Positions 2,496-9,609 of a DNA stretch of 11,091 nucleotides are shown here, piece after piece. This DNA is from a virus, in the UHGV virus genome UHGV-0030812. One strand, 5' to 3'. The stretch's first letter is position 1. The number at the start of each line of letters is the position of its first letter. The translations under genes and the position numbers were made by a program. Below the pieces are notes generated by a model, which worked only from the letters and a program-made list of their open reading frames with translations, ran no database searches and was not told where the DNA came from.

Positions 2496-3551
2496 TTAAC
2501 CAATTTTGACGGTAACAAATTTGCGAATATCTGCCGGTACCGGCTGCGGTGCACTGTGTGTCTGCACGTACTCAATCGCCGGATCTCCGTCCTCAATCCA
2601 GTTTTTCGGGTAGTACATGTTTTGCGTTGCCCCCGTTCTTACTGCGTCCTGATCCATAATCGCACCATAGGCCACCAGCCCTTTATTGTTGGTGTTGCCC
2701 AGGACAAGCAAATCAGGCTCAAGGAAATATTTTTCTGTGCCGTCGCTGTCGGCGTATTTGCCGGAATAGACGATAAGGGCAATATCGCCCAGATAGCCTT
2801 TAAAGCTCACCACTTCGCCCAAGTTTTTACATGCCAGCTCTGCGGCGGACTCTGAACCACGGGAAAGATCGTACAGCTCACGGAATTTTTTAAAGCTGCG
2901 TAACGTTCGCCATACCTCAGCGCCCATAATCATGACGTTGGCGGGGCAACCTGCCTGATCGGCGTATAGTTCGATATCATAGATTGGATCGTGGATTTCT
3001 TTGTCCTGCTCTGACCATTTTTTACCGTCGGCCTGCTCTATGATGTTTTTTTCCGGTATCTTCCAGTCGATTTCATAGCGCTCTATGCCTTCGCCCTCAA
3101 TGATGTTTTTTCCGGTCGTTACCGCATTTACCGCCAGCCATTCCACGCGCGCTTTTATGGCGTTTATCTGGCGGCGCATATTGCCAGTAATCAGGCGCAT
3201 ACGGCGATAGGTAGGGTCGTTAAGCTGTGCCGGATCTTCTCCAGCCATGCGCATGATGGTTTTCGTTGGATCGATTTCGTGCTTTGGCTTCATGTAGCCA
3301 GGTTTGATTGTGCTGGTTTCGTACCCTTTATCGCGCTGAACCTGGCTACCCACCATAGGCGAACAAAACGCCGACATGGTGACTTCTTCAATGTCCAGGG
3401 TATCCAGCATGATGTTTTGCGTGCTGAATGTCGCCACGTTCGGGAAAAACAGCGTGGTAAACAGCGGACTGAATTTAAATTCCGCAATATCCCCGCGATT
3501 CAGGTACGCAAAAAGCTGGTTAGTGTTAAGTGCCATTGCTTTTACTGTCAT
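2496..3551 (-). CDS. Major capsid protein, lambda gpE family
   Basis: 351 aa, colinear with lambda gpE (341 aa) along its whole length: FKFSPLFTTLFFP / FKFDPLFLRLFF, PGYMKPKHEIDP / PGYVKPKHEVNP, EDPAQLNDPTYRRMRLI / EDPQNLADPAYRRRRII, VLGNT, YPKNW. Start ATG overlaps the upstream stop as TAATG. Confidence 0.9.
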   Translation of the reverse strand: MTVKAMALNTNQLFAYLNRGDIAEFKFSPLFTTLFFPNVATFSTQNIMLDTLDIEEVTMSAFCSPMVGSQVQRDKGYETSTIKPGYMKPKHEIDPTKTIMRMAGEDPAQLNDPTYRRMRLITGNMRRQINAIKARVEWLAVNAVTTGKNIIEGEGIERYEIDWKIPEKNIIEQADGKKWSEQDKEIHDPIYDIELYADQAGCPANVMIMGAEVWRTLRSFKKFRELYDLSRGSESAAELACKNLGEVVSFKGYLGDIALIVYSGKYADSDGTEKYFLEPDLLVLGNTNNKGLVAYGAIMDQDAVRTGATQNMYYPKNWIEDGDPAIEYVQTHSAPQPVPADIRKFVTVKIG

Positions 3552-3757
3552 TATTCCCCCCCGTGAACCTGATTCATACCCAGCGCCGCGCGTAAATAGG
3601 CGCGTACCTGCCAGCCTGTTGACGGCTCAACCATCGCCAGCGGATCAAGTCCTGCCGCAATGCCTGCTTTTACGTTCTGCTGGTGGCGTTCCTTGAGCGC
3701 CTTCACGATGTCGGGGCTTATGTACACCGAAACACCGCCTTTTTTCTCTTCAGCCAT
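3551..3757 (-). CDS. Hypothetical protein, 68 aa, first gene of the capsid operon
   Basis: ATG at 3757-3755 with AAGAGGAA Shine-Dalgarno; its stop overlaps the capsid gene start, indicating translational coupling. No family recognised. Confidence 0.55.
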   Translation of the reverse strand: MAEEKKGGVSVYISPDIVKALKERHQQNVKAGIAAGLDPLAMVEPSTGWQVRAYLRAALGMNQVHGGE

Positions 3758-3785
3758 AGTAAGAAATTCCTCTTTGACTTAAAAA

Positions 3786-3841
3786 ATTATAACTGGATGT
3801 TCATCCAGTTCTGATTATAATCAGGATTGCATTTTGTGCAA
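3786..3841 (-). promoter_or_regulatory. Capsid-operon promoter with three contiguous palindromes: AACTGGATG-tt-CATCCAGTT (3791-3810), CTGATTATAATCAG (3811-3824), TTGCAttttgTGCAA (3827-3841)
   Basis: Minus-strand TATAAT (3791-3786) about 30 nt upstream of the orf68 ATG; the palindromes overlap and follow the -10/-35 region, consistent with a tightly regulated late promoter. Confidence 0.5.
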
Positions 3842-3921
3842 TGATATTGAGTTGTGTTGCAAATTATGAAATGATGATCCCGCTCATGTGTGTCAGTGCA
3901 CCAAAAAGCCTCATATGCAAA

Positions 3922-3959
3922 AGCCCGATAAGCCACCTCTGACCTTATCGGGCTTTTTT
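3922..3959 (+). terminator. Strong hairpin plus T-tract, best read as a plus-strand intrinsic terminator (possibly bidirectional)
   Basis: AGCCCGATAAG-(11 nt loop)-CTTATCGGGCT is a perfect 11-bp stem followed by TTTTTT on the plus strand. No annotated plus-strand gene lies upstream. Confidence 0.55.
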
Positions 3960-4134
3960 ATCTGCCTGCAAAGATGTCGAACGAAAATTAACCACAACCA
4001 TCATCTTTTTTGCATCAAAACAATTAAAAACAATAAATTACGCTCATGATGATGATGACGATAAAATCACAAAAATGCGCTTTTTTCCGCGCCTCCCGCC
4101 CCGTGTTCAGGCCCACCCCGCCAGGAGGACCCGT

Positions 4135-4919: not shown

Positions 4920-5145
4920 GTCTACCTTATCTACCTTAGTGGCCCTCATACCAGTAATGGCGCGGCTTTCAGCGGGGTAGAGTGCTTTTATCCACTATCT
5001 ACCCCGTGTCTACCTCCCTGTCTGATTCAGGTAAAATCAGGTAGAGAGGGTAGATAGTGGGTAGACAGTAAAAAAAGGCTATCTACCTAACTTAATGCAC
5101 TGAATTAAATGTATTTTTCTTTACTCAGGTAGACAGGGTAGACAG
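4920..5145. repeat. Iteron cluster, candidate replication origin: at least 10 copies of GGTAGA(C/G/T)AG / (C/T)TCTACC in both orientations
   Basis: Copies at 4920-4926, 4929-4935, 4976-4982, 4997-5004, 5008-5014, 5040-5046, 5049-5057, 5059-5068, 5081-5087, 5128-5136 and 5137-5145. Located immediately 3' of the primase/helicase gene, the usual position of a satellite ori. Confidence 0.6.
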
Positions 5146-9245: not shown

Positions 9246-9609
9246 TATTGCCCCCTTTCGTTTCTTAAAGAGTCATCAGGTGTCTTATTGTGTCGTATTG
9301 TTCCCGCTAGAGTGATGAATGGCAAATATTGAGGATGTATGATTTACAGAAAATGAAACAGTAAGAATAAAATCTTTTAAATTCATGTTAATACAAAGGC
9401 ATAAAATATTGTTTCATGCCTTTTTTCTCGCTATTTAAAGAGTGATTCGCTAGTGTATAAAAAACCAGTAACACATTAAAAATCAGCTACTTATAAATCC
9501 GTACACTTTTTCGCCTCTTGTTCGTAGTTGTTCCGCATTGTTGCTCATTGTTGCACGTTGTATCTGTTCGCATATCCAGTATGCGCATACTGAAAAAACA
9601 CGAAAAAAA

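Follow-up and report, generated by a model that had tools for sequence, protein, structure and literature searches.

Three abutting palindromes, named P1, P2 and P3 here, lie within positions 3786-3841 of UHGV virus genome UHGV-0030812, a stretch of 11,091 nucleotides (the window) in which they stand just upstream of a set of capsid genes, and it is probable that they form the composite sigma-70 promoter and operator core of the capsid operon of a phage-inducible chromosomal island (PICI) of the EcCICFT073 type. In this arrangement P2 would hold the -10 hexamer, P3 would be the first dyad (O1) of an operator pair whose partner (O2) lies farther upstream, and P1 would be an operator of the host SOS repressor LexA placed over the transcription start (Table 1). 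In undamaged cells LexA on P1 would block initiation; upon DNA damage active RecA would bring about the self-cleavage of LexA and the operon would be derepressed, and since the lambdoid helper prophage is induced by the same damage signal, both events would coincide. A second factor, probably a conserved host protein, would act at O1 and O2. From the sequence we infer that the promoter is used, that LexA binds it and that the factor at O1 and O2 acts in the repressive direction. An earlier note on this DNA had taken the density of the palindromes as a sign of one dedicated dimeric regulator which times the expression of capsid protein. Its view of the region as regulatory holds, for the control of the capsid operon is located here, and two or more of the palindromes look like conserved protein-binding sites; the one shared regulator is not supported, and the palindromes appear to be three unrelated promoter elements, not sites for a single protein.

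The palindromes and the predicted promoter

The three palindromes are present as they had been written: P1 (3791-3810) is AACTGGATG-tt-CATCCAGTT with perfect arms of 9 base pairs (bp), P2 (3811-3824) is the perfect 14-mer CTGATTATAATCAG, and P3 (3827-3841) is TTGCA-ttttg-TGCAA, which one more pair extends to ATTGCA-N5-TGCAAT (3826-3842). Just eight different perfect palindromes in the whole 11 kb combine arms of 7 bp or longer with a loop of at most 6 nucleotides (nt), and at this place two members of the set abut. When the window was shuffled with its dinucleotides preserved, 23 of 300 versions had at least three palindromes with arms of 6 bp or longer inside 60 bp; of 2000 shuffled versions of the AT-rich spacer (155 bp), 12 had at least three such palindromes; and a palindrome with 9-bp arms occurred somewhere in 21% of the window shuffles. 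Chance is a weak explanation of the cluster; the shuffles alone make it unusual, not overwhelmingly so, and conservation in the family is the stronger argument.

This conservation was followed in 55 unique upstream sequences from Escherichia coli, Salmonella, Pluralibacter and metagenomic viral contigs, assembled from an alignment of the family of the 68-amino-acid (68-aa) protein encoded by the first operon gene (80 viral-contig loci), from exact-protein look-ups (Pluralibacter and Salmonella islands) and from a pattern scan for further lineages. The palindrome region is kept in all these related promoters, and EcCICFT073 has the same layout. On the coding strand the order common to all lineages is an A/T-flanked hairpin, a variable stretch, O2, a 13-bp spacer, O1, TGAT-TATAAT-CA, P1 (missing in two lineages, labelled L058 and L251), a T run, AGAGGAA and ATG. 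Column entropy is low at the -10 hexamer (0.03), at TGAT/ATCA (0.09), in the O1 arms (0.10) and also around the ribosome-binding site; the P1 arms take a middle value (0.19), and the outer pair of P2 has the highest (1.07). The O1 and O2 dyads, at 0.14-0.15 versus 0.25 overall, are conserved above their surroundings and are, as whole elements, the best kept of the non-coding DNA. The lineage ranges of the palindromes differ, as P1 is missing in L058 and L251 and the symmetry of P2 is lost in Salmonella and L251, whereas dyads of the P3 type are universal.

The statement that the palindromes surround a -10 region agrees with a conserved minus-strand TATAAT (3819-3814) inside P2, the promoter itself being predicted: TTGCAC, a 16-bp spacer and TATAAT make a plausible sigma-70 promoter with its start near 3807. 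In promoters of the E. coli type and in those of Salmonella and Pluralibacter the minus-strand hexamer does not vary, and L058 and L251 have TAAAAT in its place, while the plus-strand reading of the same palindrome decays (TATAAA in Salmonella, TTTAAT in the L058 group), which suggests that the minus-strand -10 is the selected feature of P2. The inner TGAT/ATCA of P2 is conserved; its outer pair varies freely (C/G, A/T, A/G, C/T), and therefore the full 14-bp symmetry seems dispensable.

P1 as a candidate LexA box

P1 has the 16-bp core CTG-N10-CAG within a 20-bp palindromic site. The spacing had been noticed before and is confirmed, and LexA had nevertheless been dismissed for the lack of CTGT/ACAG. 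This dismissal is not justified, because the validated ruvA box CGCTGGATATCTATCCAGCA and cho box CACTGGATAGATAACCAGCA, both given in a table of UV-induced E. coli genes (PMC3009722 Table 4), share the CTGG...CCAG form and P1 scores like the recA and sulA boxes. With a LexA matrix made from the 18 UV-induced E. coli sites of that table (the indices for comparison were calculated leave-one-out), P1 obtained a heterology index of 7.0-7.4 and a score of 20.2 bits. The corresponding indices are 7.1-7.4 for recA, 6.1-7.3 for sulA, 7.9-8.0 for cho and 8.5-8.6 for ruvA; dinG, dinB and polB are above 11, the 18 training sites extend from 0.6 to 17.0, and P1 lies inside the span covered by sites whose SOS regulation is known from experiment. 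In the window P1 fits the matrix best, and none better is present in 49 kb of CFT073 DNA. Random DNA of matching composition gives sites as good as P1 no more than 0.5 times per Mb, two matches, both in one locus, came from unrelated viral DNA (about 1 Mb), and as a positive control the matrix recovered the annotated LexA site of phi80 (index 3.45).

The variation of P1 in the family points in the same direction. CTG and CAG (positions 3-5 and 16-18) are invariant among the 13 distinct P1 20-mers of 47 unique promoters, each variant base also occurs in validated LexA boxes, and no variant lowers the LexA score. Even those that break the stem, CATACAG (G over A, mid-stem) and GGATAAAC, improve the index to 6.1-6.4. 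In E. coli and Salmonella the distance from the invariant TATAAT of the predicted promoter to the start of the box is 3 nt. This candidate LexA box of the host type is also present in EcCICFT073 and is carried by at least 208 of 5426 complete E. coli genomes.

The ruvA box has the half-sites CTGGAT and ATCCAG, which are identical in P1; only the central four bases (GTTC/GAAC in P1, ATCT in ruvA) and the flanks differ. With the ruvAB and cho boxes P1 shares the 16-bp CTG-N10-CAG frame, a score in the validated range and a position which overlaps the core promoter and the start (predicted here). These boxes precede repair genes, whereas the candidate box P1 is found on a mobile island before capsid genes. 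In SOS promoters of the colicin type the LexA boxes follow closely upon the -10, with additional control by a second regulator. The island resembles them in a strong -10 followed at once by a putative LexA operator, with further operators upstream, and differs in having a single candidate box instead of two overlapping LexA boxes.

Several observations weigh against a LexA-controlled promoter at this place. The -35 has only three of six matches, and the promoter was not listed by a consensus scan which needs four of six in each hexamer. In Pluralibacter the box is situated 12 bp further downstream, 15 nt after the -10, and both half-sites of P1 have the weaker CTGG/CCAG form. Neither the L058-type lineage, known from 22 E. 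coli genomes, nor L251 carries the box, so LexA control cannot be essential to the module. It is also reported in the literature that EcCICFT073 interferes with lambda in plaque assays without a DNA-damaging agent; the interfering gene is in the capsid operon, which implies some expression of the operon without deliberate SOS induction. To the same side belong three features of a hairpin: the scan lists a minus-strand terminator-like element with an 8-pair stem followed by ATAATTTTTT; in Pluralibacter AACTGGATGTTTGTCCAGTT runs directly into TTTT, with sense-strand changes that are compatible with G-U pairing; and Salmonella alters both sides of one pair.

By these features P1 would act as RNA, either as a stem-loop at the 5' end of the mRNA which stabilises the message or as a weak intrinsic terminator or attenuator, and the isolated hairpin does reach -9.4 kcal/mol (z = -4.7). 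Such a role is nevertheless unlikely. An uncompensated stem mismatch is found in 11 of the 47 unique promoters (one of them mid-stem, G over A), and since the changes that break the stem move toward the LexA consensus, a protein site fits the variation of P1 better than an RNA stem; the double change in Salmonella improves the LexA match as well. Transcripts from the predicted start near 3807 would lack 3 nt on the 5' side of the stem, and the remaining hairpin has -3.9 kcal/mol and a z close to 0; in E. coli four bases other than U lie between the stem and the U run, only three pairs are G-C, and the operon is already insulated upstream by hairpins flanked by A/T runs. It is still less probable, and indeed doubtful in the extreme, that the palindromes arose as by-products, through the AT-richness of the promoter and through template-switch mutation at quasi-palindromes, with no operator beyond the -10 and -35. 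P2 owes most of its symmetry to TATAAT, which is nearly self-complementary, and its outer pair is free, the loop of P1 exists in both orientations (GAAC and GTTC), as predicted for hairpin-templated change, and 9-bp arms are not rare in the window shuffles mentioned above. Against this stand the conservation of O1 and O2 above their surroundings across lineages diverged to 60% protein identity, the fit of P1 to a LexA matrix of 20 bp, which chance would give no more than 0.5 times per Mb, and the fact that the invariant positions of P1 are exactly those which LexA needs.

Two further explanations concern P2 and the cluster as a whole. P2 could be regarded as a bidirectional -10 whose plus-strand product is an antisense RNA of about 135 nt ending at the hairpin and T run of 3944-3964, as TATAAT reads on both strands, the plus-strand arm of the inverted repeat at 3944-3964 is followed by TTTTTTAT, and the plus strand of 3828-3966 folds with z = -4.0. 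This idea has the least to recommend it, because the plus-strand -10 decays in Salmonella and L058 while the minus-strand one is kept, an acceptable plus-strand -35 is absent, many family members have unrelated sequence in place of the putative body (3876-3905), and the RNA has no Rfam match, much of its fold energy coming from the terminator hairpin itself. A single dimeric regulator that binds all three palindromes and times capsid expression, be it a late activator of the helper phage or an island-encoded factor, is very unlikely too, even though the palindromes are dense and conserved and the first gene, which always accompanies the region, could encode an autoregulator. No half-site is common to the three palindromes, and their sequences are unrelated and differ in conservation pattern and phylogenetic range. 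As regards a site for a helper-phage late activator, a BLAST comparison of the spacer with 50,697 phage records gave no similarity, and the comparison with lambdoid late promoters which had been suggested earlier gave pR' regions of different appearance in lambda and phi80 (known helpers of EcCICFT073); neither phage has an O1-type dyad (up to one mismatch) in its regulatory region, a P1-like palindrome or a P2-like site. As regards an island-encoded factor, the alpA promoter of the island is without an O1- or P1-like motif (by eye and in a repeat search), and the 68-aa protein shows no DNA-binding family or fold.

This 68-aa protein belongs to a narrow family (E. coli, Salmonella, Pluralibacter) whose gene always precedes the capsid gene. 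It had no match in scans of public species genomes, no match in PDB or Pfam, and nothing in Foldseek at an E value of 0.001 or better. Its AlphaFold model consists of two helices with a mean pLDDT of 73, and an hhalign comparison with Arc/Mnt/CopG (approximate sequences) and two open reading frames of phage contig L276 returned a probability of 9%. A possible function as ribbon-helix-helix autoregulator is unsupported, though not disproved.

Apart from these questions, the central four bases of P1 (loop at 3800-3801 in the window) were seen in different islands as GAAC, as its reverse complement GTTC and as the palindromic GTAC, a pattern that hairpin-templated inversion or correction at a palindrome would give. 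LexA-like sequence was also observed elsewhere in the island, where a conserved 20-mer, TACTGGTTTTTTATACACTA, lies upstream of alpA in the int-alpA spacer (9451-9470, minus strand). Its CFT073 counterpart is TACTGTTTTTTTATACACTG (L396:7289), and the heterology index is 8.2-8.9; the 20-mer resembles the uvrB box, but CAC replaces the invariant CAG. A weaker site, ATCTGTTCGCATATCCAGTA (index 12.1; 9562-9592), overlaps a perfect 16-bp palindrome, CAGTATGCGCATACTG.

The O1 and O2 dyads and their possible binders

O1 is the only dyad match without mismatch in the window, and O2, also seen as direct repeat D1, is with two mismatches the only other close match. Both are 17-bp dyads of the consensus (A/G)TT(G/T)C(A/G)-N5-TG(C/A)AA(T/C), and no lineage has lost either of them, not even those that lack P1. 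They are spaced 30 bp apart in E. coli, Salmonella, Pluralibacter and L058; in L251, where both dyads are perfect, the distance is 32 bp. In Salmonella O2 is changed symmetrically to ATTTCA-N5-TGAAAT, as expected of a dimer-binding site. Since O1 overlaps the -35, its binder should hinder RNA polymerase, and a dimer bound there would be expected to compete with the enzyme, so that a repressor is favoured. The dyads stay almost constant while the product of the first gene falls to 60-69% identity, which argues for a conserved and probably host-encoded binder.

The only candidate that can be named is IlvY, a LysR-type regulator whose operator motif is given in the literature as TTGCA-N5-TGCAA, and it is put forward as a lead, not as a finding. 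O1 agrees with this motif in 10 of 10 specified bases, and O2 in 8 of 10 in E. coli and in 10 of 10 in L251. The O1 core of the K-12 ilvY-ilvC region, GTTGCAAAAATTGCAAT, is identical to O1 of the window at 14 of 17 positions and to one family variant at 16 of 17. Both systems have one strong and one weaker dyad in tandem, 31 bp apart in ilvY-ilvC and 30 bp here. They differ in the centres of the dyads (-65 and -34 or -43 there, -57 and -27 of the predicted promoter here), in that the strong dyad is promoter-proximal in the island, and in the adjacent gene, as ilvY is divergent there and the island has no LysR-type gene; in position and neighbouring gene the island does not follow the IlvY pattern. 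It is a rather doubtful possibility that O1 and O2 are true sites for IlvY or for another conserved LysR-type protein of the host, the capsid operon being then gated by two host regulators. If it were so, LexA would sense DNA damage and IlvY the metabolic state, and a mobile element would have copied a chromosomal operator pair.

The motif is not confined to this family. In the collection scanned, paired TTGCA-N5-TGCAA proved to be mostly coding tandem repeats of 9 bp, and a minority were real dyad pairs in unrelated GC-rich phages. Outside the EcCICFT073-type family the matches to ATTGCA-N-AAAATGCAAT are apparently due to chance, many of them apparently within coding sequence. The real pairs, GTTGCA-N5-TGCAAC dyads 19 bp apart, were observed in unrelated phage contigs with 51-63% G+C (L276:5002-5050, L300:8571-8619, L318:8322-8370 and similar loci), mostly with CGTCAA between the dyads (the complement TTGACG in L318). 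They adjoin genes which by sequence resemble Cro/CI-, AlpA- or Arc/Mnt-type regulators and look like a recurrent operator design. As similar pairs adjoin other regulator genes in unrelated phages, the motif alone does not name the binder.

Other candidates were considered and rejected. CytR recognises TGCAA-N2-3-TTGCA or octamer repeats flanked by CRP sites (PMC3454398), whereas the half-sites of the island face the opposite way (TTGCA...TGCAA) and no CRP site was seen by eye within 5 bp. Sigma-54, lambda CII (TTGC-N6-TTGC), NtrC, marbox, Fur and FNR/CRP gave only partial matches on P2 and P3, as judged by eye. AlpA of the island was discarded as binder, no similar motif being found in the alpA promoter by eye or in the repeat search. 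Antitermination of the Pseudomonas AlpA type was rejected as well, the residues of Pseudomonas AlpA being numbered to at least 142 versus 62 aa in the island protein. A Q-type late promoter (Q-binding element, sigma-dependent pause, terminator) was not recognised, and there is no similarity to pR' of lambda or phi80; a -10-like TATAAT farther downstream (3792-3787) reads TATGAT, TGTGAT, CCTGAT or TCTGAT in other family members. An identity of 13 nt between O1 and the 6S region of lambda (CAAAATGCAATCC) was judged to be chance, the lambda stretch not being a dyad; the 6S RNA region (L207, about 44,700-44,730) has TCTGCAAAATGCAATCC, of which 13 consecutive bases equal positions 3824-3836 of the window (O1 and flank).

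The island, its capsid operon and the meaning of the proposed control

An island in the chromosome of E. coli strain 300709, integrated into tqsA, makes up the window; its main genes are all on the minus strand, and by gene order it is a PICI of the EcCICFT073 type. The features discussed are collected in Table 1.

Table 1. Position of the predicted promoter elements, putative operators and genes of the island in the window
Feature	Position	Strand	Remarks
Candidate LexA (SOS) box P1, AACTGGATGTTCATCCAGTT	3791-3810		Spans about -3 to +17 of the predicted promoter
Predicted transcription start	3806-3808	minus	Near 3807, 6-8 nt after the -10, placed from the -10 position
Predicted -10 hexamer TATAAT	3814-3819	minus	Inside P2; from sequence and conservation
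Predicted -35 hexamer TTGCAC	3836-3841	minus	3/6 matches, 16-bp spacer; left arm of O1
O1 (= P3), ATTGCA-N5-TGCAAT	3826-3842		Centred near -27, spans about -35 to -19, overlaps the -35
O2, partner dyad, ATTTCA-N5-TGCAAC on the coding strand	3856-3872		30 bp upstream of O1, centred near -57
Shine-Dalgarno AGAGGAA of the 68-aa gene	3767-3773	minus	Kept in all lineages
First operon gene, 68-aa protein (phrog_3255)	3551-3757	minus	Stop overlaps the capsid-gene start
gpE-like (lambda-E-like) major capsid protein, operon gene 2	2496-3551	minus	Pfam Phage_cap_E, E = 1.9e-51; annotated as major capsid protein
Terminator-like inverted repeat I1	3912-3964		21-bp arms, A-run on one side and T-run on the other; upstream of the capsid promoter, between the operon and the replication genes
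SSB	4595-4173	minus	Followed by a 415-bp spacer before the capsid operon
D5-type primase	6913-5159	minus	Preceded by small genes
AlpA-family regulator	9245-9057	minus	62 aa
Tyrosine integrase	10839-9610	minus	

The operon comprises, in this order, the genes of the 68-aa protein, the gpE-like capsid protein, a gpD-like decoration protein, a 137-aa Nu3-like fragment similar to the scaffold end of lambda C/Nu3, and Rpp, a winged-helix protein of 146 aa. EcCICFT073, taken from the CFT073 genome, has the same module with an almost identical upstream region, P1 included; in the literature its capsid protein is c1499, its decoration protein c1500 and its packaging-redirection protein Rpp c1503. The conserved capsid module ends at the inverted repeat I1 (BLAST coverage stops at about 3959), an element that the terminator scan of the window did not list, and Salmonella and Pluralibacter islands have two hairpins in a row with flanking A/T runs at the same place. 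Because of these terminator-like hairpins upstream, the capsid operon can be considered a transcription unit apart from the AlpA-driven early genes; gene content, inverted repeat and module boundary all separate the capsid and packaging operon of the satellite from the early genes under the master regulator.

Several other observations were made in the island. Many E. coli islands share 3500-3959 and carry other genes upstream (PerC, other replication modules). A long, nearly perfect hairpin is present at 4991-5072, in the spacer downstream of the primase gene, and the sole match in an Rfam scan of the window was a chance mir-135 at this hairpin, far from the palindromes. The hairpin may be part of the replication origin, which the literature on PICIs describes as lying downstream of primase. 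Repeats of the type (G/C)(G/C)AACAA(C/T/G) were noticed downstream of int (9520-9565, minus strand: GCAACAAT twice, GGAACAAC and CGAACAAG), and units of GAACAAT and GACACAAT near the alpA start (9285-9315, minus strand); these AACAA-type repeats may be AlpA sites or arm-type sites of the integrase.

The nearest parallel to the proposed LexA control is SaPI operon I of Staphylococcus aureus, which is reported, in PMC11442139 (citing Ubeda et al. 2007), as a LexA-controlled operon for packaging and capsid morphogenesis. The two are alike in that the packaging and capsid module of a satellite forms its own unit with a host LexA box in the promoter (predicted here), and in the logic which couples it to SOS-induced helper prophages. 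They differ in the LexA motif (AGAACTTAAGTTCG there, CTG-N10-CAG in the Gram-negative host here) and in the proteins encoded (TerS and Cpm there, homologues of lambda E, D and Nu3 together with Rpp here); moreover, the island has an extra conserved dyad pair, and only part of its family carries the box.

No paper describing a LexA box in a Gram-negative PICI was found, the coverage of the literature being incomplete, and as to how the capsid and packaging genes of these elements are switched on, the searchable literature covers only the autoactivation of early genes by AlpA. A LexA box at the capsid promoter is a simple and directly testable answer to this question. The conserved IlvY-like dyads point to a further regulator of the capsid operon. 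If the LexA control proposed here is true, it would be a second, independent case of the wiring reported for SaPI operon I; the expression of Rpp, a protein of both interference and packaging, would be tied to the SOS response, and SOS-inducing antibiotics would be linked to the spread of satellites.

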